This document shows positions 8,401-39,818 of a stretch of 39,818 nt of DNA, piece after piece. The notes below the pieces were generated by a model. The model saw only the letters and a program-made list of their open reading frames with translations. It did no database searches and was not told the origin of the DNA. Numbering within the stretch: the first letter of the stretch is position 1; each line of letters starts with the position of its first letter. Source of the stretch: Shigella phage ESh2; sequence record ON528716. One strand, given 5' to 3'. A program made the position numbers and the translations under genes.

Positions 8401-8661
8401 ATGTTTCGACTTCATTACAACAAAAGCATTAAGAATTTCACGATTCGCCGTGCTGACCGTTCAATCGTATGTGCGAGCGAGAGCCGAGCTAAGTTACCTC
8501 TTATTGGTAACACAGTTCCTTTGGCACCGAGCGTCCACATCATTATCACCCGTGGTGACTTTGAGAAAGCAATAGACAAGAAACGTCCGGTTCTTAGTGT
8601 GGCAGTGACCCGCTTCCCGTTCGTCCGTCTGTTACTCAAACGAATCAAGGAGGTGTTCTAA
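8401..8661 (+). CDS. 1.6: gene 1.6 protein
   Basis: 86 aa; [27 protein letters not shown]... matches T7 gp1.6. Confidence 0.9.
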
Positions 8662-8997
8662 TGTCTCGTATCATGCAAAAATGTGATAGCCCTACCTACT
8701 GTGAAGCCTGTAATGGTGACGACCGCTTTCCTCATGTGGGTAAGCCTATAGTCGATAAACCACAAGATATAGAGGGTGTGCGCACTCCGAGCCACTACAT
8801 GTTGTTTGACGACATTGAGGCTATCGAAGTGATTGCCCGTTCAATGACTCGTGAGCAGTTCAAAGGGTACTGCTTAGGGAACGTCTTAAAATACAGACTA
8901 CGTGCTGGCAAGAAGTCAGAACTGGCTTACTTAGAGAAAGACCTAGCGAAAGCAGACTTCTATAAAGAACTCTTTGAGAAACATAAGGATAAATGTT

Positions 8998-9005
<8 letters not shown>
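8661..9005 (+). CDS. 1.7: gene 1.7 protein (nucleotide kinase homolog), N-terminally shortened relative to T7
   Basis: 114 aa; C-terminal part ...PSHYMLFDDIEAIEVIARSMTREQFKGYC...KHKDKCYA matches T7 gp1.7 C-terminus; T7 protein recalled as about 196 aa. Confidence 0.8.
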
Positions 9006-9359
<354 letters not shown>

Positions 9360-9362
<3 letters not shown>

Positions 9363-9382
9363 TACGACTCACTATTAGGGAG
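9360..9382 (+). promoter_or_regulatory. T7 RNAP promoter phi2.5
   Basis: taatacgactcactattagggag. Confidence 0.8.
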
Positions 9383-9431
9383 GGAAGACTCCCTTTGAGA
9401 AACCAAACGAAACCTAAAGGAGATTAACATT

Positions 9432-10130
9432 ATGGCTAAGAAGATTTTCACCTCTGCGCTGGGTACTGCTGAACCTTACGCTTACCTCTCCAAGCCGGAC
9501 TACGGTAACGAAGAGCGTGGCTTTGGGAACCCTCGCGGTGTCTACAAAGTTGACCTGACTATTCCCAACAAAGACCCGCGCTGTCAACGCATGGTCGATG
9601 AAATCGTGAAGTGTCACGAAGAGGCTTATGCTGCTGCCGTTGAGGAATACGAAGCGAATCCACCTGCTGTAGCTCGTGGTAAGAAACCGCTGAAACCGTA
9701 TGAAGGCGACATGCCATTCTTCGATAACGGTGACGGCACGACTACCTTTAAGTTCAAATGCTACGCGTCTTTCCAAGACAAGAAGACCAAAGAGACCAAG
9801 CACATCAATCTGGTTGTGGTTGACTCCAAGGGTAAGAAGATGGAAGACGTTCCGATTATCGGTGGTGGCTCTAAGCTGAAAGTCAAATACTCTCTGGTTC
9901 CGTACAAGTGGAACACTGCTGTAGGTGCAAGCGTTAAGCTGCAACTGGAATCCGTGATGCTGGTCGAACTGGCTACCTTTGGTGGCGGTGAAGACGATTG
10001 GGCTGACGAAGTTGAAGAGAACGGCTATGTTGCCTCTGGTTCTGCCAAAGCGAGCAAACCACGCGACGAAGAAAGCTGGGACGAAGACGACGAAGAGTCC
10101 GATGAAGTAGACGAAGACGGAGATTTCTAA
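9432..10130 (+). CDS. 2.5: single-stranded DNA-binding protein with acidic C-terminal tail
   Basis: 232 aa; MAKKIFTSALGTAEPYAYLSKPDYGNEERGF... ends DEDDEESDEVDEDGDF; matches T7 gp2.5. Confidence 0.97.
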   Translation: MAKKIFTSALGTAEPYAYLSKPDYGNEERGFGNPRGVYKVDLTIPNKDPRCQRMVDEIVKCHEEAYAAAVEEYEANPPAVARGKKPLKPYEGDMPFFDNGDGTTTFKFKCYASFQDKKTKETKHINLVVVDSKGKKMEDVPIIGGGSKLKVKYSLVPYKWNTAVGASVKLQLESVMLVELATFGGGEDDWADEVEENGYVASGSAKASKPRDEESWDEDDEESDEVDEDGDF

Positions 10131-10586
10131 GTGGCTGGCGCATACGCTGCGCGTGGTATCAGAAAGGTCGGGACATTCCGTTCCGGCCTAGAAGATAAGG
10201 TCTCTAAGCAGCTAGAGAGTAAAGGTATACAGTTTGACTACGAGCAGTGGAAGATTCCATACGTAGTCCCTGCGAGTAATCATACCTATTGTCCAGATTT
10301 TCTACTGCCCAATGGTATCTTTATCGAGACCAAAGGACTATGGGAAAGTGATGACCGCAAGAAGCACCTACTTATTCGCGAGCAGATGCCTGAGCTAGAT
10401 ATACGACTTGTGTTCTCAAGCTCCCGAACAAAGCTCTACAAAGGGTCTCCAACGTCCTATGCAGAATTTTGTGAAAAGCACGGCATCAAGTTTGCTGATA
10501 AGCTGATTCCAGTTGAGTGGCTCAAAGAGCCTAAACGGGAGGTGCCATTCGATAAGCTCAAACAGTCAAAAGGAGCTAAGAAGTGA
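10131..10586 (+). CDS. 3: endonuclease I (Holliday junction resolvase)
   Basis: 151 aa from GTG at 10131 immediately after the 2.5 stop; MAGAYAARGIRKVGTFRSGLEDKVSKQLESKG...PDFLLPNGIFIETKG matches T7 gp3. Confidence 0.9.
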   Translation: MAGAYAARGIRKVGTFRSGLEDKVSKQLESKGIQFDYEQWKIPYVVPASNHTYCPDFLLPNGIFIETKGLWESDDRKKHLLIREQMPELDIRLVFSSSRTKLYKGSPTSYAEFCEKHGIKFADKLIPVEWLKEPKREVPFDKLKQSKGAKK

Positions 10587-11041
10587 TTCATCCAAAACTC
10601 TTGATAGAGCCGACCGATTCCTGTATTGAATGGACAGGCGCGTTCCACAAGAACGGGTACGGAGTAATCTCTTTGAATCGCAAAGTAGCTGCCGAACTAG
10701 GAATACCTAGGGTGCAATTTGTACACAGGGCAAGCTACATGCAGCATAAAGGAACTATAGGTGATGGACTTGTTGTTCGTCACCTGTGTCACAACAGAAA
10801 GTGTTTCAACCCAGCTCACTTGGAAGTCGGCACTCAGTACGATAACTTCGAAGATAGTGTTAAGGTTGGTCGCAACAAACGTAAACTGCTTGATGAGGAC
10901 GTTAAATCAATTAGAGAGTCCACAATGAGTAACCGCAAGTTAGCCAAGCTATACGGTGTTAGCTCTACAACGATCTTCCACATCAAGCACAACAACAAGT
11001 GGAGGAATTTAAATGGCACGAGTACAATTCAAACAGCGTGA
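10583..11041 (+). CDS. HNH homing endonuclease (free-standing), inserted between genes 3 and 3.5
   Basis: 152 aa from GTG 10583 (SD aggag 7 nt upstream); motifs EWTGAFHKNGYG, HRASY, RHLCHNRKCFNPAHLEVGTQYDN; C-terminal region SNRKLAKLYGVSSTTIFHI resembles a helix-turn-helix. Confidence 0.8.
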   Translation: MIHPKLLIEPTDSCIEWTGAFHKNGYGVISLNRKVAAELGIPRVQFVHRASYMQHKGTIGDGLVVRHLCHNRKCFNPAHLEVGTQYDNFEDSVKVGRNKRKLLDEDVKSIRESTMSNRKLAKLYGVSSTTIFHIKHNNKWRNLNGTSTIQTA

Positions 11042-11468
11042 AAGCACCGATGCAATCTTCGTTCATTGCTCAGCAACAAAACCTAATATGAATTGGGGTG
11101 TACGTGAGATTCGCCAGTCTCATAAAGAGCGTGGGTTCCTAGATGTGGGATACCACTTTATCATCAAGCGCGATGGTACTGTAGAGGAAGGCCGAGATGA
11201 GATGGCTGTAGGCTCTCACGCTAAGGACTACAATCACAACTCAATCGGTGTCTGCCTTGTGGGTGGTATCGACGATAAGGGTAAGTTTGACGCTAACTTT
11301 ACGCCAGCCCAAATGCAATCCCTTCGATCACTGCTTGTCACACTGCTGGCTAAATACGAAGGCGCTGTGCTTCGCGCACATCATGATGTTGCACCTAAGG
11401 CTTGCCCATCGTTCGACCTTAAGCGTTGGTGGGAGAAGAATGAACTTGTAACTTCTGACCGTGGATAA
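11013..11468 (+). CDS. 3.5: lysozyme (N-acetylmuramoyl-L-alanine amidase) / RNAP inhibitor
   Basis: 151 aa; MARVQFKQRESTDAIFVHCSATKPN... matches T7 lysozyme; start and SD lie inside the 3' end of the HNH ORF. Confidence 0.95.
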   Translation: MARVQFKQRESTDAIFVHCSATKPNMNWGVREIRQSHKERGFLDVGYHFIIKRDGTVEEGRDEMAVGSHAKDYNHNSIGVCLVGGIDDKGKFDANFTPAQMQSLRSLLVTLLAKYEGAVLRAHHDVAPKACPSFDLKRWWEKNELVTSDRG

Positions 11469-11469
11469 T

Positions 11470-11492
11470 TAATTGAACTCACTAAAGGGAGA
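11470..11492 (+). promoter_or_regulatory. T7 RNAP promoter phi3.8
   Basis: taattgaactcactaaagggaga. Confidence 0.8.
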
Positions 11493-11512
11493 CCACAACG
11501 GTTTCCCTTTGT
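11487..11512 (+). promoter_or_regulatory. 5' leader hairpin / RNase III site R3.8
   Basis: gggagaccacaacggtttccc hairpin; same sequence recurs at the phi10 leader (22511). Confidence 0.6.
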
Positions 11513-11524
11513 TCGCAATGTTGA

Positions 11525-13285
<1,761 letters not shown>

Positions 13286-13298
<13 letters not shown>

Positions 13299-13498
13299 TT
13301 AAGAAATTAGGCCAACTGCTGGTTCGTATGTATAACGTGGAAGCCAAGCGTCTGAACGATGAGGCTCGTAAAGAGGCCACACAGTCACGCGCTCTAGCGA
13401 TTCGCTCCAACGAACTGGCTGACAGTGCATCCACTAAAGTTACCGAAGCTGCCCGTGTAGCAAACCAAGCTCAACAGCTTTCCAAATTCTTTGAGTAA
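13286..13498 (+). CDS. 4.3: gene 4.3 protein
   Basis: 70 aa; MFKLIKKLGQLLVRMYNVEAKRLNDEARKE... matches T7 gp4.3. Confidence 0.9.
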
Positions 13499-13517
13499 TC
13501 AAACAGGAGAAACCAAC

Positions 13518-13787
13518 ATGTCTAACGTAGCTGAAACTATCCGTCTATCCGATACCGCTGACCAGTGGAACCGTCGAGTCCACATCAACGTTCGCAACGG
13601 TAAGGCGACTATGGTTTACCGATGGAAGGACTCTAAGTCCTCTAAGAATCACACTCAGCGTATGACGTTGACAGATGAGCAAGCACTGCGTCTGGTCAAT
13701 GCGCTTACCAAAGCTGCCGTGACAGCAATTCATGAAGCTGGTCGCGTCAACGAAGCTATGGCTATCCTCGACAAGATTGGTAGCTAA
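13518..13787 (+). CDS. 4.5: gene 4.5 protein
   Basis: SD aggag 8 nt upstream of ATG 13518; MSNVAETIRLSDTADQWNRRVHINVRNGKATMVYRWKD... matches T7 gp4.5. Confidence 0.9.
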   Translation: MSNVAETIRLSDTADQWNRRVHINVRNGKATMVYRWKDSKSSKNHTQRMTLTDEQALRLVNALTKAAVTAIHEAGRVNEAMAILDKIGS

Positions 13788-13797
13788 GAGTGGTATA

Positions 13798-13830
13798 CTC
13801 AAGGCCGCCAAAGTGGTGGCCTTCATGAAT
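13798..13830 (+). promoter_or_regulatory. RNase III processing hairpin R4.7
   Basis: ctcaaggccgccaaagtggtggccttcatgaat. Confidence 0.6.
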
Positions 13831-13831
13831 A

Positions 13832-13854
13832 CTATTCGACTCACTATAGGAGAT
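13832..13854 (+). promoter_or_regulatory. T7 RNAP promoter phi4.7
   Basis: ctattcgactcactataggagat. Confidence 0.75.
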
Positions 13855-13860
13855 ATTACC

Positions 13861-14292
13861 ATGCGTGACCCTAAAGTTATCCAAGCAGAAATCGCTAAGT
13901 TGGAAGCTGAACTGGAGGACGTTAAGTACCATGAGGCCAAGACTCGCTCCGCTGTTCACATCTTGAAGAACTTAGGTTGGACCTGGACAAGACAGACTGG
14001 CTGGAAGAAGCCAAAGACAGTCTGGCTGGAAGAAACAGAAGTTAACAAGCTGAGCCACAATGTGTTCTATAAGGACACTATGACCCGCATCAAGGCTGGT
14101 GATTGGGTTAAGGTTGACATGGGAGTTGTTGGTGGGTAGGGCTACGTCCGCTCAGTTGGTGGCAAATATGCACAAGTGTCATACATCACAGGTGTTACTC
14201 CACGCGGTGCAATCGTTGCCGATAAGACCAGCATGATTCACACAGGTTTCTTGACAGTCGTTTCATACGAAGAGATTGTTAAGTCACGATAA
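13861..14292 (+). pseudogene. 4.7: gene 4.7 interrupted by an in-frame amber (TAG) codon at 14137-14139; truncated product 92 aa (13861..14139)
   Basis: Reading frame continues after the TAG for 50 more sense codons (GYVRSVGGKYAQVSYITGVTPRGAIVADKTSMIHTGFLTVVSYEEIVKSR) that match the T7 gp4.7 C-terminus; T7 has TAT (Tyr) where this window has TAG. Confidence 0.8.
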
Positions 14293-14311
14293 TCAAATAG
14301 GAGAAATCAAT

Positions 14312-16426
14312 ATGATCGTTTCTGACATCGAAGCTAACGCCCTCTTAGAGAGCGTCACTAAGTTCCACTGCGGGGTTATCTACGACTACTCCACCGCTGA
14401 GTACGTAAGCTACCGACCGAGTGACTTCGGTGCGTATCTGGATGCGCTGGAAGCCGAGGTTGCACGAGGCGGTCTTATTGTGTTCCACAACGGTCACAAG
14501 TATGACGTTCCTGCATTGACCAAACTGGCAAAGCTACAATTGAACCGAGAGTTCCACCTTCCTCGCGAGAACTGTATTGACACCCTAGTTCTGTCACGCT
14601 TGATTCACTCTAACCTCAAGGACACCGATATGGGTCTCCTGCGCTCAGGTAAGTTGCCGGGGAACCGCTTTGGGTCTCACGCTTTGGAGGCGTGGGGTTA
14701 TCGCTTAGGCGAGATGAAGGGTGAATACAAAGACGACTTTAAGCGTATGCTTGAAGAGCGAGGTGAAGAATACGTTGATGGAATGGAGTGGTGGAACTTC
14801 AACGAAGAGATGATGTCCTATAACGTTCAGGACGTTGTGGTCACTAAAACCCTCCTTGAGAAGCTACTCTCTGACAAACATTACTTCCCTCCTGAGATTG
14901 ACTTTACGGACGTAGGACACACTACGTTCTGGTCAGAATCCATTGAGGCCGTTGACATTGAACATCGCGCTGCATGGCTACTTGCTAAGCAAGAGCGTAA
15001 TGGGTTCCCGTTTGACACGAAAGCAATCGAAGAGTTGTACGTAGAGTTAGCTGCTCGACGCTCTGAGTTGCTACGTAAATTGACCGAAACGTTCGGCTCA
15101 TGGTATCAACCTAAGGGTGGCACTGAGATGTTCTGCCATCCACGGACAGGTAAGCCACTGCCTAAATACCCTCGCATTAAGACACCTAAAGTCGGAGGCA
15201 TCTTTAAGAAGCCTAAGAACAAGGCACAGCGAGAGGGACTAGAGCCGTGCGAACTGGATACCCGTGAGTACGTTGCTGGTGCTCCGTATACTCCGGTAGA
15301 GCACGTAGTGTTTAACCCTTCGTCTCGTGACCACATTCAGAAGAAACTTCAAGAGGCTGGATGGGTCCCGACTAAGTTCACCGATAATGGTGCTCCTGTG
15401 GTGGACGATGAGGTGCTAGAAGGAGTACGTGTAGATGACCCTGAGAAGCAGGCTGCTATCGACCTCATTAAAGAGTACTTGATGATTCAGAAGCGAATCG
15501 GACAGTCTGCTGAGGGAGACAAAGCATGGCTTCGTTATGTTGCTGAGGACGGTAAGATTCATGGTTCTGTTAATCCCAACGGCGCTGTTACTGGTCGTGC
15601 CACCCATGCTTTCCCTAACCTAGCACAGGTACCCGGTGTCCGTTCTCCTTATGGGGAGCAGTGTCGCGCTGCTTTTGGCGCTGAGCATCATTTGGATGGA
15701 CTAACTGGTAAGCCTTGGGTTCAGGCTGGCATCGACGCATCCGGTCTGGAGCTACGCTGCTTGGCCCACTTCATGGCTCGCTTTGATAACGGTGAGTATG
15801 CTCACGAGATTCTTAATGGCGACATCCACACTAAGAACCAGATTGCTGCCGAATTGCCTACCCGCGATAACGCTAAGACGTTCATCTATGGGTTCCTCTA
15901 CGGTGCTGGTGACGAGAAGATTGGACAGATTGTTGGTGCTGGTAAAGAGCGCGGTAAGGAACTCAAGAAGAAATTCCTTGAGAACACCCCAGCTATTGCA
16001 GCACTCCGTGAGTCTATCCAACAGACACTTGTGGAGTCCTCTCAGTGGGTAGCTGGTGAGCAACAAGTCAAGTGGAAACGCCGCTGGATTAAGGGTCTGG
16101 ATGGTCGTAAGGTACACGTCCGTAGTCCTCATGCTGCCTTGAATACCCTACTGCAATCTGCTGGTGCTCTCATCTGCAAACTGTGGATTATCAAGACCGA
16201 AGAGATGCTCGTAGAGAAAGGCTTGAAGCACGGCTGGGATGGGGACTTTGCGTACATGGCATGGGTGCATGACGAAATCCAAGTAGGTTGCCGTACCGAA
16301 GAGATTGCTCAGGCGGTCATTGAGACCGCACAAGAAGCAATGCGCTGGGTTGGAGACCACTGGAACTTCCGGTGTCTTCTTGATACCGAGGGTAAGATTG
16401 GTCCTAACTGGGCCGTATGTCACTGA
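14312..16426 (+). CDS. 5: DNA polymerase (family A, with 3'-5' exonuclease and thioredoxin-binding domain)
   Basis: 704 aa from ATG 14312 (SD aggag); [26 protein letters not shown]... near-identical to T7 gp5. Confidence 0.98.
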
Positions 16427-16445
16427 TTCTATAGGAGAAATTATT

Positions 16446-16745
16446 ATGGCTATGACAAAGAAATTTAAAGTATCCTTTGACGTTACCGCAAAGATGCCGT
16501 CTGACGTTCAGGCAATCTTAGAGAAAGACATACTGCACTTGTGTAAGCAGGTAGGCTCAGGTGCGATTGTCCCAGATGGTAAACAGAAGGAAATGATTGT
16601 CCAGTTCCTGACACACGGTATGGAAGGCGTGATGGCATTCGTAGTGCGTACATCATTCCGTGAGGCCATCAAGGACATGCACGAAGAGTATTCCGATAAG
16701 GACTGCTTCAAGTTATCTCCTGCAACAGTACGGGAGGTGTTCTGA
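16446..16745 (+). CDS. 5.5: gene 5.5 protein (H-NS binding)
   Basis: 99 aa; MAMTKKFKVSFDVTAKMPSDVQAILEKD... matches T7 gp5.5. Confidence 0.9.
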   Translation: MAMTKKFKVSFDVTAKMPSDVQAILEKDILHLCKQVGSGAIVPDGKQKEMIVQFLTHGMEGVMAFVVRTSFREAIKDMHEEYSDKDCFKLSPATVREVF

Positions 16746-16954
16746 TGTCTGACTACCTGAAAGTACTGCAAGCAATCAAAAGTTGCCCTAAGACTTTCCA
16801 GTCCAACTATGTGCGGAACAATGCGAGCCTCGTAGCGGAGGCCGCTTCCCGTGGTCACATCTCATGTCTGACTACGAGTGGACGTAACGGTGGCGCTTGG
16901 GAAATCACTGCTTCCGGTACTCGCTTTCTGAAACGAATGGGAGGGTGTGTCTGA
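16745..16954 (+). CDS. 5.7: gene 5.7 protein
   Basis: 69 aa; MSDYLKVLQAIKSCPKTFQSNYVRNNASLVAEAASRGH... matches T7 gp5.7. Confidence 0.9.
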   Translation: MSDYLKVLQAIKSCPKTFQSNYVRNNASLVAEAASRGHISCLTTSGRNGGAWEITASGTRFLKRMGGCV

Positions 16955-17112
16955 TGGTACGTGACACTGTAACAATTCCGCGTGATGTGTGGAACGATAT
17001 GCAGGGCTACATCGACTCTCTGGAGCGTGAGAACGATAGCCTTAAGAATCAACTGATGGAAGCTGACGAATACGTAGCGGAACTAGAGGAGAAACTTAAT
17101 GGCACTTCTTGA
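16954..17112 (+). CDS. 5.9: RecBCD inhibitor (gp5.9)
   Basis: 52 aa; MVRDTVTIPRDVWNDMQGYIDSLERENDSLKNQLMEADEYVAELEEKLNGTS; matches T7 gp5.9. Confidence 0.85.
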   Translation: MVRDTVTIPRDVWNDMQGYIDSLERENDSLKNQLMEADEYVAELEEKLNGTS

Positions 17113-18001
17113 CCTTAAACAATTCTATGAGTTACGTGAAGGTTGTGACGACAAAGGTATCCTTGTGATGGACGGTGACTGGCTGGTCTTCCAAGCGATG
17201 AGTGCCGCTGAGTTTGATGCCTCATGGGAGGAAGAGATTTGGCACCGCTGCTGTGACCACGCTAAGGCCCGTCAGATTCTTGAGGATTCCATTAAGTCCT
17301 ACGAGACACGCAAGAAGGCTTGGATAGGCGCTCCGATTGTCCTTGCGTTCACCGATAGTGTTAACTGGCGTAAAGAACTGGTTGACCCGAACTACAAGGC
17401 TAACCGTAAGGCAACTAAGAAACCTGTAGGTTACTTTGAGTTCCTTGATGCTCTCTTTGAGCGCGAAGAGTTCTATTGCATCCGTGAGCCTATGCTTGAG
17501 GGTGATGACGTTATGGGAGTTATTGCTTCCAATCCGTCTGCATTTGGTGCCCGTAAGGCTGTAATCATCTCGTGCGATAAGGACTTTAAGACCATCCCTA
17601 ACTGTGACTTCTTGTGGTGTACCACTGGTAACATCCTGACTCAGACCGAAGAGTCCGCTGACTGGTGGCACCTCTTCCAGACAATCAAAGGTGACATCAC
17701 AGATGGTTACTCAGGGATTGCCGGATGGGGTGATACCGCAGAGGACTTCTTGAATAACCCGTTCATAGTCGAGCCTAAAACGTCTGTGCTTAAGTCTGGT
17801 AAGAACAAAGGCAAAGAGGTTACTAAATGGGTTAAACGTGACCCTGAGCCTCATGAGACGCTTTGGGACTGCATTAAGTCCATTGGTGCTAAGGCCGGTA
17901 TGACCGAAGAGGATATTATCAAGCAGGGCCAGATGGCACGCATCCTGCGGTTCAACGAGTACAACTTTATCGACAAGGAGATTTACCTGTGGAGGCCGTA
18001 G
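17099..18001 (+). CDS. 6: 5'-3' exonuclease
   Basis: 300 aa; MALLDLKQFYELREGCDDKGILVMDGDWLVF... matches T7 gp6. Confidence 0.98.
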   Translation: MALLDLKQFYELREGCDDKGILVMDGDWLVFQAMSAAEFDASWEEEIWHRCCDHAKARQILEDSIKSYETRKKAWIGAPIVLAFTDSVNWRKELVDPNYKANRKATKKPVGYFEFLDALFEREEFYCIREPMLEGDDVMGVIASNPSAFGARKAVIISCDKDFKTIPNCDFLWCTTGNILTQTEESADWWHLFQTIKGDITDGYSGIAGWGDTAEDFLNNPFIVEPKTSVLKSGKNKGKEVTKWVKRDPEPHETLWDCIKSIGAKAGMTEEDIIKQGQMARILRFNEYNFIDKEIYLWRP

Positions 18002-18102
18002 CGTATATTGGCATTGGTCTTTGTGTTCTCGGAATGGGCCTCATTGCATGGGGCATTTGGGACTTAGCCAGAATAATCAAGTCGTTACACGAAACTAAGT
18101 GA
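17989..18102 (+). CDS. 6.3: gene 6.3 small protein (37 aa)
   Basis: GTG start with SD aaggag 8 nt upstream; MEAVAYIGIGLCVLGMGLIAWGIWDLARIIKSLHETK; length matches T7 gp6.3; overlaps end of gene 6. Confidence 0.5.
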   Translation: MEAVAYIGIGLCVLGMGLIAWGIWDLARIIKSLHETK

Positions 18103-18106
18103 TAAA

Positions 18107-18160
18107 CTCAAGGCCCTAAATTAATACGACTCACTATAGGGAGATAGGGGCCTTTATGGT
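18107..18160 (+). promoter_or_regulatory. RNase III hairpin R6.5 enclosing promoter phi6.5
   Basis: ctcaaggcccta ... taggggcctttatggt arms flank the promoter. Confidence 0.6.
18122..18144 (+). promoter_or_regulatory. T7 RNAP promoter phi6.5
   Basis: taatacgactcactatagggaga, exact consensus. Confidence 0.9.
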
Positions 18161-18198
18161 TATTACTTTAAGATTTAACTCTAAGAGGAATCTTTATT

Positions 18199-18453
18199 AT
18201 GCTAACACCTATTAACCATTTACTTAAGAACCCTAACGATATTCCAGACGTGCCTCGTGCAACCGCTGAGTATCTACAGGTTCGATTCAACTACGCGTAC
18301 CTCGAAGCGTCTGGTCATATAGGATTTATGCGCGCTAATGGTTGTAGTGAAGCCCACATCTTGGGTTTCATTCAAGGCCTACAGTATGCCTCTAACATCA
18401 TTGACGAGATTGAGTTACGCAAGGAACAACTAAGAGATGATGGGGAGGATTGA
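18199..18453 (+). CDS. 6.5: gene 6.5 protein
   Basis: 84 aa; [30 protein letters not shown]... matches T7 gp6.5. Confidence 0.9.
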
Positions 18454-18457
18454 CCTT

Positions 18458-18724
18458 ATGTGTTTCTCACCGAAAGTTAAAGTTCCGAAGATGGATACCA
18501 ATCAGATTCGAGCCGTTGAGCCAGCGCCACTGACACAAGAAGTGTCAAGCGTGGAGTTCGGTGGGTCTTCTGATGAGACGGATACCGAAGGCACCGAAGT
18601 GTCTGGACGCAAAGACCTAAAGGTCGAACGCGATGATTCCGTAGCGAAGTCTAAAGCCAGTGGTACTGGTTCCGCTCGTATGAAATCTTCAATCCGTAAG
18701 TCCGCATTTGGAGGCAAGAAGTGA
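18458..18724 (+). CDS. 6.7: gene 6.7 virion protein
   Basis: 88 aa from ATG 18458 (SD ggggagg); MCFSPKVKVPKMDTNQIRAVEPAPLTQE... matches T7 gp6.7. Confidence 0.85.
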   Translation: MCFSPKVKVPKMDTNQIRAVEPAPLTQEVSSVEFGGSSDETDTEGTEVSGRKDLKVERDDSVAKSKASGTGSARMKSSIRKSAFGGKK

Positions 18725-19125
18725 TGTCTGAGTTCACATGTGTGGAGGCCAAGAGTCGCTTCCGTGCAATCCGGTGGACTGTGGAACACCTTGGGTTGCC
18801 TAAAGGATTCGAAGGGCACTTTGTGGGCTACAGCCTCTACGTTGACGAAGTAATGGACATGTCTGGGTGCCGTGAAGAGTACATTCTGGACTCTACAGGA
18901 GAACATGTAGCGTACTTCGCGTGGTGCGTAAGCTGTGACATTCACCACAAAGGAGACATTCTGGATGTAACGTCCGTTGTCATTAATCCTGAGGCAGACT
19001 CTAAGGGCTTACAGCGATTCCTAGCGAAACGCTTTAAGTACCTTGCAGAACTCCACGATTGCGATTGGGTGTCCCGCTGTAAACATGAAGGCGAGACAAT
19101 GCGTGTATACTTTAAGGAGGTATAA
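18724..19125 (+). CDS. 7: gene 7 protein (host range / virion assembly)
   Basis: 133 aa; MSEFTCVEAKSRFRAIRWTVEHLGLPKGFEGHF... matches T7 gp7. Confidence 0.9.
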   Translation: MSEFTCVEAKSRFRAIRWTVEHLGLPKGFEGHFVGYSLYVDEVMDMSGCREEYILDSTGEHVAYFAWCVSCDIHHKGDILDVTSVVINPEADSKGLQRFLAKRFKYLAELHDCDWVSRCKHEGETMRVYFKEV

Positions 19126-19449: not shown

Positions 19450-19847
19450 CAGATTGTATCCTTCATACTGGTTGCACGACTAAAGGAGGGTACGGTCTCG
19501 TTGGTTATAAAGGTAAGACACAGCTGGCTCACAGGGTATCATACATCAAATCAAAGGGTGAGATACCGACTGGTATGGTCATAATGCATACCTGTGACAA
19601 CCCTCTGTGTATCAACCCTGAACATCTTGTAGCTGGAACTCAGCGTGATAACCGTATGGACTGTGTAACTAAAGGTAGAGCGAACGTATCCAGAGGTGAA
19701 GAGCATTATTGTGCCAAGCTCACTGAGGCCATTGTGCGTGAGATTCGTGCATCAAATTTAACCAACACTGAGTTGTCAGAAGTGTATGGCATCCATAGGA
19801 GAACCATTAGTGACGCTCGATGTGGTAAGACATGGAGACATATTTAA
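19446..19847 (+). CDS. 7.7: HNH homing endonuclease at the gene 7.7 position
   Basis: 133 aa; TKGGYGLVGYKGKTQLAHRVSY...HTCDNPLCINPEHLVAGTQRDN HNH motif; C-terminal NTELSEVYGIHRRTISD HTH-like; stop overlaps gene 8 start by 1 nt. Confidence 0.85.
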   Translation: MTDCILHTGCTTKGGYGLVGYKGKTQLAHRVSYIKSKGEIPTGMVIMHTCDNPLCINPEHLVAGTQRDNRMDCVTKGRANVSRGEEHYCAKLTEAIVREIRASNLTNTELSEVYGIHRRTISDARCGKTWRHI

Positions 19848-30199: not shown

Positions 30200-30616
30200 A
30201 TGAGTATCGTGGAGCGCATTAGGAATGATTCAATTGTTGATGACAATGGTTGTTGGCTCCCTAAGAGACCAATCAAAGGTTATCGTCACATTAGGATTGA
30301 TGGTGTGCTCCAACGTGCTCACAGGGTGATAGTGGGTGCTGGGAAGGATGACGTTGTATTACACCTGTGTGATGTACCCAGTTGTTGTAACCCTGAGCAT
30401 CTCCGAATAGGCACTCAATCAGACAACATGGTTGACATGCAATCTAAGCATAGACATCCGGGACGTAAATTGAGTGACGAGGATGTAATCTACATACTAA
30501 ACTCTGATGCCTCAGGCTATAGTCTAGCCAAGAAATTCAAAGTAACCAAAGAAGTAATCTATAGAATACGAAAAGGAGAGTACTATGGGCGTTTACGACA
30601 AGTCGAAACCAAGTGA
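30200..30616 (+). CDS. HNH homing endonuclease inserted between genes 15 and 16
   Basis: 138 aa; SD taaggagg; DDNGCWLPKRPIKGYRHI...AHRVIV...HLCDVPSCCNPEHLRIGTQSDN HNH motif; C-terminal SGYSLAKKFKVTKEVIYRIRKG HTH-like; 3' end overlaps gene 16 start by 32 nt. Confidence 0.85.
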   Translation: MSIVERIRNDSIVDDNGCWLPKRPIKGYRHIRIDGVLQRAHRVIVGAGKDDVVLHLCDVPSCCNPEHLRIGTQSDNMVDMQSKHRHPGRKLSDEDVIYILNSDASGYSLAKKFKVTKEVIYRIRKGEYYGRLRQVETK

Positions 30617-34613: not shown

Positions 34614-36311
34614 ATGGCTAACGTAATTAAAACCGTTTTGACTTACCAGTTAGATGGCTCCAATCGTGATTTTAATATCCGGTTTGAGTATCTAGCCCGT
34701 AAGTTCGTAGTGGTAACTCTTATTGGGGTAGACCGTAAGGTCCTTACGATTAATACAGACTACCGTTTTGCTACTCGCACCACTATCTCATTGACCAAGG
34801 CTTGGGGACCAGCGGATGGCTACACTACCATCGAGTTACGTCGAGTAACCTCCACGACCGACCGATTGGTTGATTTTACGGACGGCTCAATCCTCCGCGC
34901 GTATGACCTTAACGTCGCTCAGATTCAAACGATGCACGTAGCGGAAGAGGCCCGTGACCTAACTGCCGATACTATCGGTGTCAACAACGATGGTCACTTG
35001 GATGCGCGTGGTCGTCGAATTGTGAACCTAGCGAACGCTGTGGATGACCGTGATGCTGTTCCGTTTGGTCAACTTAAGACCATGAACCAGAACTCATGGC
35101 AAGCTCGTAATGAAGCCTTACAGTTCCGCAATGAGGCTGAGACTTTCCGTAACCAAGCGGAGGGCTTTAAGAATGAGTCCAGCACGAACGCAACGAATAC
35201 CAATCAATGGCGCATTGAGGCTGAGGGGTTCCGTAATGAGGCTGAACAGTTCAAGAACACTGCGACACAACAGGCTACCGCTGCTGGGAACTCTGCTGCT
35301 GCTGCTCACCAATCGGAGATTAACGCCGAGAACTCAGCGACTGACTCTGCTAGCTCTGCTCATTTAGCAGAACAGCAAGCTGACCGTGCTGAGCGCGAAG
35401 CAGACAAGTTGGGTAACTGGAATGCTCTTGCTGGAGCTATTGACCATGTTGACGGTACTCGTGTGTTCTGGAAAGGCGAGCAACATTCTGATGGCAGACT
35501 ATATCTAACCACTAATGGATTCGATATTGGGCAGTATCAACAGTTCTTTGGTGGTGTTACTAACCGTTATTCAGTAATGGAGTGGGGTGATAAGTACGGC
35601 TGGCATTTGTACTCGGAGCGTCAAACCGAGGGTGGTACGACAACATTGAACCTTCGAGGACATATGACAGCAAATGGTAACGTCCGCGCTGCTGGTAACT
35701 CCTATACGAATAACCTCTTTGAGATGGACCGAGAGCAGCATTGGCCCGGTCGTGGTGCGTTTGCGAACCAGTATGCGGACAGGGCTGCACCATTTACCAA
35801 GACTGGTCGTTATCAGGCACCTAACGGGTACTCAGAGTATTATCCTATTGTTAAAGCCTATGTTGAAACACAAGGTTACGGGTATGGTACGGTTGCTACC
35901 TTCGGTATGCTAACCTCTGGAGGTGGTAGGTTTGCTAATGGGTGTGTCCACGTTATTGGGGATAATGGTGTTAATGGTCTCTGGCAGTTCGACCCTAACA
36001 CTGGTGGTTTCCTATCACGCGGAGATGTACATGTTGGAGATGGCGGTGTCGTCTACCAGAACGGTGACATATATGGTACGGTGTGGGGTGGTCGGCCTAT
36101 TTCACAGTGGTTAGGGGACCAGACCGTAAACCACATTGCTATGGGTGGTGTTAACTTTGCTCAGCTATGGAATAGTTACGGTATAGGAGATGGTGGTGGT
36201 AAGGTGATCACAGGAATCACCAACAGTAACGCTGATGCGCTAGTCGATGGATGCCAGTGGCGAGTAATGCAGTATGTCCGCAACAACGGACAGTGTTTCA
36301 ATATTTATTAA
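34614..36311 (+). CDS. 17: tail fibre protein; T7-like N-terminal and shaft region (aa 1 to about 326), divergent C-terminal receptor-binding region (aa about 327-565)
   Basis: 565 aa; MANVIKTVLTYQLDGSNRDFNIRFEYLARKF... matches T7 gp17 through ...GGVTNRYSVMEWGD, then diverges into a Gly-rich sequence unlike the T7 tip domain as recalled. Confidence 0.95.
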   Translation: MANVIKTVLTYQLDGSNRDFNIRFEYLARKFVVVTLIGVDRKVLTINTDYRFATRTTISLTKAWGPADGYTTIELRRVTSTTDRLVDFTDGSILRAYDLNVAQIQTMHVAEEARDLTADTIGVNNDGHLDARGRRIVNLANAVDDRDAVPFGQLKTMNQNSWQARNEALQFRNEAETFRNQAEGFKNESSTNATNTNQWRIEAEGFRNEAEQFKNTATQQATAAGNSAAAAHQSEINAENSATDSASSAHLAEQQADRAEREADKLGNWNALAGAIDHVDGTRVFWKGEQHSDGRLYLTTNGFDIGQYQQFFGGVTNRYSVMEWGDKYGWHLYSERQTEGGTTTLNLRGHMTANGNVRAAGNSYTNNLFEMDREQHWPGRGAFANQYADRAAPFTKTGRYQAPNGYSEYYPIVKAYVETQGYGYGTVATFGMLTSGGGRFANGCVHVIGDNGVNGLWQFDPNTGGFLSRGDVHVGDGGVVYQNGDIYGTVWGGRPISQWLGDQTVNHIAMGGVNFAQLWNSYGIGDGGGKVITGITNSNADALVDGCQWRVMQYVRNNGQCFNIY

Positions 36312-36326
36312 TAGGAGGAGTATGGT

Positions 36327-36932
36327 ATGGGAACTTTACGTCACTATAAGAACTTCGTAAACTATGTACCAGAGCGTACCAAAGATAATGCAGACCTTCT
36401 AGACCACGGCGTTGGCTTCTCAAAGGACGAGAATGGGAATGACTGGTATGAACTGCGTAATACATTCCGTGAGGATACATGGAAACTTGTCTATGCCAAA
36501 GACGGTTCTGTAATTCAGTGTGAACAGGATGTTCAGGAGTTAGCCGTTCAGGGTTCTGCTGGTGTGGTTGAACTTGAGGAAATCCCTGCTGAATACTCTC
36601 GGTATAATATGATGCAGTGGTGGTGGGACGGCGAGAAGCTCACTTGGTATCCAAGATACTTTGAGAACCAGAAGGCTCGTCTAATCTCTATGGCCTCCAA
36701 GAAGATTGAGCAGTATGCTGACTTTATGGCGCTTGGGGAGGAGGGGCTAGAAGGCATCTTAAATGCGTGGCGAGCCTATCGCCTTGCTGTATATAAAGTG
36801 GACCTAAGTGTTCTGCCTTTCTATGACTGGCCTGAGAAGCCTGAGGACTTATTAACAACAACACACAAGGAAAGACGTGTAGTCCACGGAAGGACTCTTA
36901 CAAGGAGGACACGTGCTGTCTTTAGATTTTAA
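36327..36932 (+). CDS. putative tail-fibre assembly chaperone (lambda Tfa-like)
   Basis: 201 aa; SD aggagg 8 nt upstream of ATG; C-terminal signature NAWRAYRLAVYKVDLSVLPFYDWPEKPED resembles the W..YR..L..VD.S..P..WP..P motif of Tfa-family proteins; no gene at this position in T7. Confidence 0.65.
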   Translation: MGTLRHYKNFVNYVPERTKDNADLLDHGVGFSKDENGNDWYELRNTFREDTWKLVYAKDGSVIQCEQDVQELAVQGSAGVVELEEIPAEYSRYNMMQWWWDGEKLTWYPRYFENQKARLISMASKKIEQYADFMALGEEGLEGILNAWRAYRLAVYKVDLSVLPFYDWPEKPEDLLTTTHKERRVVHGRTLTRRTRAVFRF

Positions 36933-37938: not shown

Positions 37939-39699
37939 GTGTCTACTCAAGCCAATCGTAATGCGCTCGTAGTGGCGCAACTGAAAGGAGACTTCGTGGC
38001 GTTCCTGTTCGTCTTATGGAAGGCGTTAAACCTTCCGGTGCCCACTAAGTGTCAGATTGACATGGCTAAGGTGCTGGCGAATGGGGACAACAAGAAGTTC
38101 ATCCTACAGGCTTTCCGTGGTATCGGTAAGTCGTTCATCACATGTGCGTTCGTTGTGTGGTCCTTATGGAGAGACCCTCAGTTGAAGATACTTATCGTAT
38201 CAGCCTCTAAGGAACGTGCAGACGCTAACTCCATCTTTATTAAGAACATCATTGACCTGCTGCCGTTCCTCGCTGAGTTAAAGCCAAGACCCGGACAGCG
38301 TGACTCTGTAATCAGCTTTGACGTTGGCCCAGCTAAGCCTGACCACTCTCCTAGTGTAAAATCGGTAGGTATCACTGGTCAGTTAACTGGTAGTCGTGCT
38401 GACATTATCATTGCGGATGACGTTGAGATTCCGTCTAACAGTGCGACTATGGGTGCCCGTGAGAAGCTATGGACTCTTGTTCAGGAGTTCGCTGCGTTAC
38501 TTAAACCGCTGCCGTCCTCTCGCGTTATCTACCTTGGTACGCCTCAGACAGAGATGACTCTCTATAAGGAACTTGAGGATAACCGTGGGTATACCACTAT
38601 CATCTGGCCTGCTCTGTACCCAAGGACGCGTGAAGAGAACCTCTATTACTCACAGCGTCTTGCTCCTATGTTACGCGCTGAGTACGATGAGAACCCTGAG
38701 GCACTAGCTGGGACTCCAACAGACCCTGTGCGCTTCGACCGTGATGACCTCCGTGAACGTGAGTTGGAATACGGTAAGGCTGGCTTCACATTACAGTTCA
38801 TGCTTAACCCGAACCTTAGTGATGCCGAGAAGTACCCTCTGAGGCTCCGTGACGCTATCGTAGCGGCCTTAGACTTAGAGAAGGCACCAATGCACTATCA
38901 GTGGCTTCCGAACCGTCAGAACATCATTGAGGACCTTCCTAACGTTGGCCTTAAGGGTGATGACCTTCATACGTATCACGATTGCTCCAACAACTCCGGT
39001 CAGTACCAACAGAAGATTCTGGTCATTGACCCCAGTGGTCGCGGTAAGGACGAAACAGGTTACGCTGTGTTGTACACCCTGAACGGTTACATCTACCTTA
39101 TGGAAGCTGGAGGTTTCCGTGATGGTTACTCCGATAAGACCCTTGAGTTGCTCGCTAAGAAAGCCAAGCAGTGGGGAGTCCAGACGGTTGTCTACGAGAG
39201 TAACTTCGGTGACGGTATGTTTGGTAAGGTGTTCAGTCCTATCCTCCTTAAACACCACAACTGTGCGATGGAAGAGATTCGCGCTCGTGGTATGAAAGAG
39301 ATGCGTATTTGTGATACCCTTGAGCCAGTCATGCAAACTCACCGCCTTGTCATTCGTGATGAGGTCATTAGGGCCGACTACCAGTCCGCTCGTGACGTAG
39401 ACGGTAAGCATGACGTTAAGTACTCGCTGTTCTACCAGATGACCCGTATCACTCGTGAGAAAGGCGCTCTGGCTCATGATGACCGATTGGATGCCCTTGC
39501 GTTAGGCATTGAGTATCTCCGCGAGTCCATGCAGTTGGATTCAGTTAAGGTCGAAGGTGAAGTACTTGCTGACTTCCTTGAGGAGCACATGATGCGTCCT
39601 ACAGTGTCTGCTGCCCACATCATTGAGATGTCTGTGGGAGGAGTTGATGTGTACTCTGAGGACGATGAGGGTTACGGTACGTCTTTCATTGAGTGGTGA
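37939..39699 (+). CDS. 19: terminase large subunit (DNA maturase B)
   Basis: 586 aa from GTG 37939 (SD aaggagg); [33 protein letters not shown]... Walker A-like GIGKS; matches T7 gp19. Confidence 0.98.
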
Positions 39700-39792
39700 T
39701 TTATGCAGTTGGAGTGAATAAGGATTCATTATTGCCAAGGAAGGCACTTTTTGTACGATTACTTTAGAATCAGTAAGTTAGGCCCTCAAAAT

Positions 39793-39815
39793 TAATACGA
39801 CTCACTATAGGGAGA
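39793..39815 (+). promoter_or_regulatory. T7 RNAP promoter phiOR (right-end promoter; its transcript continues across the window boundary into position 1)
   Basis: taatacgactcactatagggaga; window end ...gggagagga joins window start gggacgaaagg... to recreate the T7 phiOR leader. Confidence 0.9.
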
Positions 39816-39818
39816 GGA

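Follow-up and report, generated by a model that had tools for sequence, protein, structure and literature searches.

The question raised by this locus is why gene 4.7 of a T7-like phage ends at an amber codon when its reading frame stays open for 50 codons more. It is found in a DNA of 39,818 nucleotides from Shigella phage ESh2 (sequence record ON528716), the whole of which we call the window. A sequence-only reading had proposed either a natural pseudogenisation of a nonessential gene or an amber allele read through in a suppressor host. We favour the first. In this wild T7-like phage the accessory gene 4.7 has probably lost its function through a recent nonsense mutation of natural origin, and the stop is most likely an ordinary natural knock-out with no new mechanism behind it.

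The gene 4.7 locus

The window contains the genome of a T7-like phage (Teseptimavirus). Over positions 9000–19000 it is about 93–94% identical to each of the phages YpsP-G, JacobBurckhardt and phiA1122; the phage collection has no record identical to it. Gene 4.7 keeps the position typical of its family, after gene 4.5 and the phi4.7 promoter and directly before gene 5; the T7 annotation places phi4.7 at the matching position. The features of the locus are the following:

13832–13854, plus strand: T7-type promoter phi4.7, ctattCGACTCACTATAGGagat, with +1 at about 13849; identical to T7 across the stretch in the alignment
13861–14136, plus strand: codons 1–92 of gene 4.7, the part expected to be translated, with ATG at 13861; predicted N-terminal helix, hairpin, linker and first strand of the C-terminal domain
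14137–14139, plus strand: amber codon TAG, codon 93; TAT (Tyr) in the closest relatives, TAC in T7
14140–14292, plus strand: remnant of gene 4.7, presumably untranslated, with 50 codons and TAA (14290–14292); predicted strands 2–6 and terminal helix of an SH3-like domain
14299–14314, plus strand: Shine-Dalgarno sequence AGGAG and ATG (at 14312) of gene 5, the DNA polymerase, which thus has its own ribosome-binding site

Since gene 5 has a ribosome-binding site of its own, it is unaffected by the stop in gene 4.7. Residues 1–704 of gp5 are intact and 98% identical to T7.

Translation of 13861–14292 gives 92 residues (MRDPKVIQ...DMGVVGG), a stop, 50 more residues (GYVRSVGGKYAQ...EEIVKSR) and TAA, so that the in-frame amber codon interrupting the gene is confirmed. 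A tblastn search with T7 gp4.7 aligns its residues 1–135 across the stop (E = 2.7e-81), with this one stop in the alignment. The match of the downstream frame to the T7 C-terminus had already been seen; it amounts to 48 of the 50 residues, the two differences being S>G and N>S. An alignment which spans the stop and is so well conserved beyond it indicates homology, not a chance open frame. The family profile phrog_4023 also covers residues 1–142 of the read-through translation (E = 8.7e-55).

The sense codon which was lost is not quite the one first proposed. T7 had been said to have TAT at this place, but its codon is TAC, as in 13a and phiA1122; among these named phages TAT is present in 64795_ec1 only. 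It is the nearest relatives of the window, two metagenome scaffolds described below (L021 and L022), which have TAT, in the context GGG TAT GGC. Relative to them the change in the window is T>G at 14139. The in-frame TAG is one base removed from the sense codon of the close relatives, as is found in amber point mutations. The predicted product sizes, 92 against about 143 amino acids, are correct. The read-through product is longer than the 135 residues of T7 gp4.7 by reason of 24 extra bases upstream of the stop, a feature absent from the earlier reading.

The read-through translation shares about 90% identity with T7 gp4.7 (PF26857; PHROG 4023; 135 amino acids), which is encoded at the same position and behind the same phi4.7 promoter. 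It differs by the TAG at codon 93, an insertion of eight residues in the linker and the substitutions K67N, D70Y and H76R.

Intact relatives

In a large protein collection we have found two intact proteins of 143 amino acids, P0001 (97% identical) and P0002 (95%). The same search returned the window's own 92-residue gene 4.7 product, as an NCBI entry (P0025). All 79 hits carry the precomputed family PF26857 (Phage_T7_4_7). The stop is absent from 77 of the 79 protein clusters. P0001 is encoded on the ENA metagenome scaffolds L021, of 40 kb, and L022; P0002 is encoded on the Logan contig L023. Both alleles share with the window a 25-nt duplication, the loss of one nucleotide and the same 50 C-terminal codons. 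Unlike the window, both read TAT at codon 93 and retain the ancestral residues K67, D70 and H76. Beyond the stop the DNA of P0001 does not differ from the window, and over 14140–14565 the window and L021 are the same. The remnant thus shows no decay and the stop is recent.

The comparison with relatives which had been suggested as a check thus supports the proposal: besides TAT in the closest relatives, all 39 fetched loci with a gene 4.7 homologue have an intact open reading frame, with 132–159 amino acids. Genomic neighbourhoods reached through the window proteins gp4.3, gp2.5, gp5.5, gp6.5 and gp5.9 also gave only relatives with an intact gene 4.7, and contig look-ups through gp4.5, gp7.3 and gp1.2 returned no record. 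Neither the TAG allele nor the duplication junction, each searched as an exact DNA pattern, had a match in IMG/VR or in the JGI metagenomes. A looser pattern, with any stop at codon 93, had none in the GTDB genomes or in IMG/VR. Its single match in JGI (L050) was rejected: it is an unrelated open reading frame of 234 amino acids which happens to end in MGVVGG.

An insertion older than the stop

The extra bases upstream of the stop derive from a tandem repeat:

13989–14038, plus strand: direct tandem repeat of 25 nt, copies 13989–14013 and 14014–14038, 84% identical

This repeat was missed by Tandem Repeats Finder and was found by a separate repeat search. Combined with a missing C, it amounts to a net gain of 24 nt, eight codons in frame (KTVWLEET), over T7. 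In the second copy the codons are read in another frame, and the original frame is regained by the loss of the C; a duplication of 25 nt alone would, as read from the sequence, meet a TAA almost at once. The insertion implies either a frameshift followed by restoration of the frame or a single complex event. As L021, L022 and L023 have it in their intact alleles, it must have arisen before the stop. None of the 50,697 GenBank phage records searched covers this stretch. Another change of length is seen in some wild relatives (L034, at 10003–10482, L035, L037 and L043): their gene 4.7 codes for 159 amino acids, with about 72 nt duplicated internally where the C-terminal barrel begins. With alleles that span 132 to 159 amino acids, gene 4.7 is a small gene unusually prone to length changes.

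What the truncation removes

We have obtained an AlphaFold (AF2) model for the intact allele P0001, using 63 homologues; its mean pLDDT is 78. It has a helix at residues 4–37, a hairpin at 41–49, a disordered linker of low confidence at 54–67, a confident SH3-like beta-domain at 82–133 and a helix at 136–142. The insertion (residues 52–59) overlaps the linker. Codon 93 falls in the second strand, so that according to the model five of the six strands of the C-terminal barrel are lost. Among the residues lost are the best conserved ones in the C-terminal part of the family: of the 63 relatives, 59 have Y95, 63 have V96 and 62 have R97. The uninterrupted frame with an N-terminal helix and a C-terminal barrel which characterizes the family is broken in the window by the TAG at codon 93.

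The course of events which we propose starts with the transversion T>G at 14139, which would have changed Tyr93 (TAT) into amber. The phi4.7 promoter is intact; its transcripts should still be translated from the ATG at 13861, and the ribosome would terminate at codon 93. The 92-residue product would keep the N-terminal helix, the hairpin and the linker, with only the first strand of the SH3-like barrel. Such a product, without the domain which holds the Y95-V96-R97 motif, is most likely inactive or unstable; its non-function we infer from the predicted structure.

We have rejected re-initiation downstream of the stop. The candidate is an in-frame GTG at 14176, which would give 38 amino acids and only part of the barrel; the nearest Shine-Dalgarno-like sequence, GGTGG, lies 13 nt upstream of it.

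The function of gp4.7 is unknown (PMC12798971), and the literature searched gave neither a function nor a link to defence. A profile search of solved structures with gp4.7 had no match. A local Pfam match to HicA_toxin was discarded as sub-threshold (E = 0.18, with 12 bits where the cut-off is 27).

Probable relaxed constraint in the window

From 14000 to 14565 the window and L021 have only four differences, all of them in gene 4.7. One is the stop itself (14139); the other three are specific to the window and all non-synonymous, as found in the alignments with relatives:

14061, plus strand: G>T, K67N
14068, plus strand: G>T, D70Y
14087, plus strand: A>G, H76R

Residue 70 is Asp in 57 of the 63 relatives and Tyr in none. 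Three additional non-synonymous changes just upstream of the stop, one of them at a nearly invariant Asp, suggest a relaxed constraint. Counting over the whole gene, 4.7 has six non-synonymous and two synonymous changes against 93 and 487 in 17 other genes (Fisher p = 4e-4), a comparison which has only eight codon differences on the side of gene 4.7. On these small numbers purifying selection is relaxed in comparison with the neighbouring genes, as in a pseudogene, and the substitution pattern points to relaxed constraint on gene 4.7 in the lineage of the window. Natural pseudogenisation, one of the two possibilities raised at first, is thus better supported than read-through, by the excess of non-synonymous change, by D70Y and by the destruction of the C-terminal domain.

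Gene 4.7 can be lost

Gene 4.7 has been described as nonessential, and for T7 this has been shown. In heat-adapted T7, deletions over genes 4.5–4.7 were fixed in parallel (PMC8923235); the gene could also be removed by CRISPR-based genome reduction (PMC9825161) and by multiplex engineering (PMC12153263). T7 P82, an evolved line which is viable, has lost one nucleotide at codon 4 of gene 4.7. The gene is therefore dispensable in T7, as shown by the literature and by P82, and by analogy it should be so in the phage of the window. Together with the alignments, these cases uphold the view of a single-base nonsense change in a nonessential gene. The laboratory knock-outs (the P82 frameshift, the 4.5–4.7 deletions and the engineered deletions) resemble the window in that the gene is lost and the phage is viable. 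They differ in being deletions or frameshifts obtained in the laboratory, whereas the window has a nonsense point mutation in a wild-type-like isolate.

The phage would tolerate the loss because gene 4.7 is probably dispensable in it too and gene 5 has its own ribosome-binding site; we infer that the allele is neutral or nearly neutral. On the other hand, gene 4.7 is conserved and intact in nearly all wild relatives, which implies that it has some importance in nature, so a null allele may be costly.

The main consequence is for annotation: the 92-residue open reading frame should be flagged in annotation as a truncated gene 4.7, and the next 150 nt should be given as a gene remnant, not as intergenic DNA. 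The window also provides a natural data point: gene 4.7 can be lost outside the laboratory, though it is conserved in nearly all T7-like phages.

Alternative explanations

Suppression of the amber codon during growth on a host with an amber suppressor, such as a laboratory E. coli K-12 with supE44 or supF, with partial read-through to the 143-residue protein, was the second possibility raised at first; we consider it unlikely. Classical T7 amber mutants, like the window, have a sense codon changed to TAG by one base. They are conditional-lethal mutants in essential genes, selected after mutagenesis and grown on suppressor hosts. The window has instead the sole amber of its genome, in a dispensable gene, in a phage about 93% identical to T7. 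A single step leads from Tyr to amber, and with supF the original Tyr would be put back, which restores the wild-type residue; however, no suppressor tRNA is encoded in the window. The 150 nt downstream of the stop are undamaged, as suppression predicts, but this is also expected if the mutation is recent: about two changes would be expected there, as estimated from the changes in the window lineage upstream of the stop, and to see none has a chance of about 0.1. The extra non-synonymous changes, with D70Y at a nearly invariant site, suggest instead that the whole gene is unconstrained.

The loss of the SH3-like domain could itself have been selected, for example as an escape from a host defence which senses this domain, with a functional 92-residue fragment. 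This we find rather improbable. It has to be considered in view of two other truncated alleles. The first, P0080, is the second member of the 90% cluster of the window product and is found on Logan contigs of up to 40064 bases. It also has 92 amino acids, the insertion and the same ...DMGVVGG end, but differs from the window product in six residues: E19D, R29S, A31D, N67K, Y70D and R76N. To judge from its protein sequence, it comes from another phage, in which a stop follows the same codon. The second (L060, positions 397–639, from Logan SRR27143232; protein P0044) has a 1-nt deletion in a GGG run about 15 nt upstream of the TAG site, which produces a frameshift and a product of 80 amino acids. 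As it lies in a G run on a short contig of 1 kb, this deletion may be an error.

The truncations found thus all keep the N-terminal 80–92 residues, and in the family no part is better conserved than the N-terminus. Furthermore, T115A, a change in the C-terminal domain of gp4.7, was enriched in evolving T7 populations (PMC12798971). Such a clustering is not predicted by random decay. On the other hand, it comprises two or three events noticed post hoc, too few to carry weight. The substitutions D70Y in the window and A31D in P0080 replace nearly invariant or invariant residues of the N-terminal part (position 31 is the same in 63 of 63 relatives), the opposite of what a maintained fragment would show; A31D fits a fragment which is no longer constrained. 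No defence has been linked to gp4.7 in the literature searched. We therefore give little credence to a stop at codon 93 which circulates or recurs, shedding the SH3-like domain and keeping the N-terminal helix, under selection by a domain-sensing bacterial defence or for the N-terminal module alone. Should the truncation prove to be shared or to recur, it could be used to study the role of the SH3-like domain in natural hosts.

An error of sequencing or assembly, with T as the true base at 14139 and gene 4.7 intact, is in our opinion very unlikely. The difference from the nearest relatives is a single base, the TAG allele is not found in IMG/VR, the JGI metagenomes or the GTDB genomes, and the window looks like an unpolished assembly, circularly permuted with respect to T7. 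Indeed gene 19.5 is found at 152–298 (within 1–300) and gene 19 ends at 39696 (39696–39818 being the other end of the window), so the assembly has not been rotated to its true ends and terminal repeats. However, some 50 other genes are intact, without stops or frameshifts, and substitution errors in a consensus are rare. When all T7 proteins are compared with the window, an in-frame stop is seen in no real gene but 4.7, which argues against a generally error-prone assembly. P0080, assembled separately by Logan, ends at the same residue and differs at six positions. That each of the three nearby changes is non-synonymous is easier to explain by biology than by noise.

Finally, reassignment of the stop codon or programmed recoding, with TAG read as sense, has practically no probability: apart from the open frame after the stop it has nothing in its favour, no other real gene of the window has an in-frame TAG, a search for tRNA genes in the window found none, and the relatives have a plain Tyr codon, with the stop absent from all 39 fetched loci, whereas programmed read-through would show a stop conserved among relatives and an extension maintained by selection.

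Other features of the window

Some further differences from T7 have been found in the window. T7 genes 0.3, 0.4, 3.8, 4.1 and 5.3 have no detectable homologue in it. Gene 1.7 (8661–9005) matches only residues 96–196 of T7 gp1.7, with an open reading frame of 114 amino acids; by this comparison its N-terminal half is missing or replaced. A stretch at 38585–38836 matches T7 19.2, a doubtful open reading frame nested inside gene 19, and has one in-frame stop, which suggests that 19.2 is not a conserved gene.

Three homologues of the HNH homing endonucleases gp2.8 and gp7.7 of T7 are found at 30206–30601, 10613–11011 and 19452–19844. One of them lies between genes 15 and 16, a place without such a gene in T7. 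The tail fibre (34614–36900) is matched by T7 gp17 over residues 1–366 only, with 84% identity; its distal, receptor-binding part is unrelated to that of T7, and about 1.2 kb lie between the end of the gp17 match and gene 17.5. Such a divergent distal fibre suggests a different host range.
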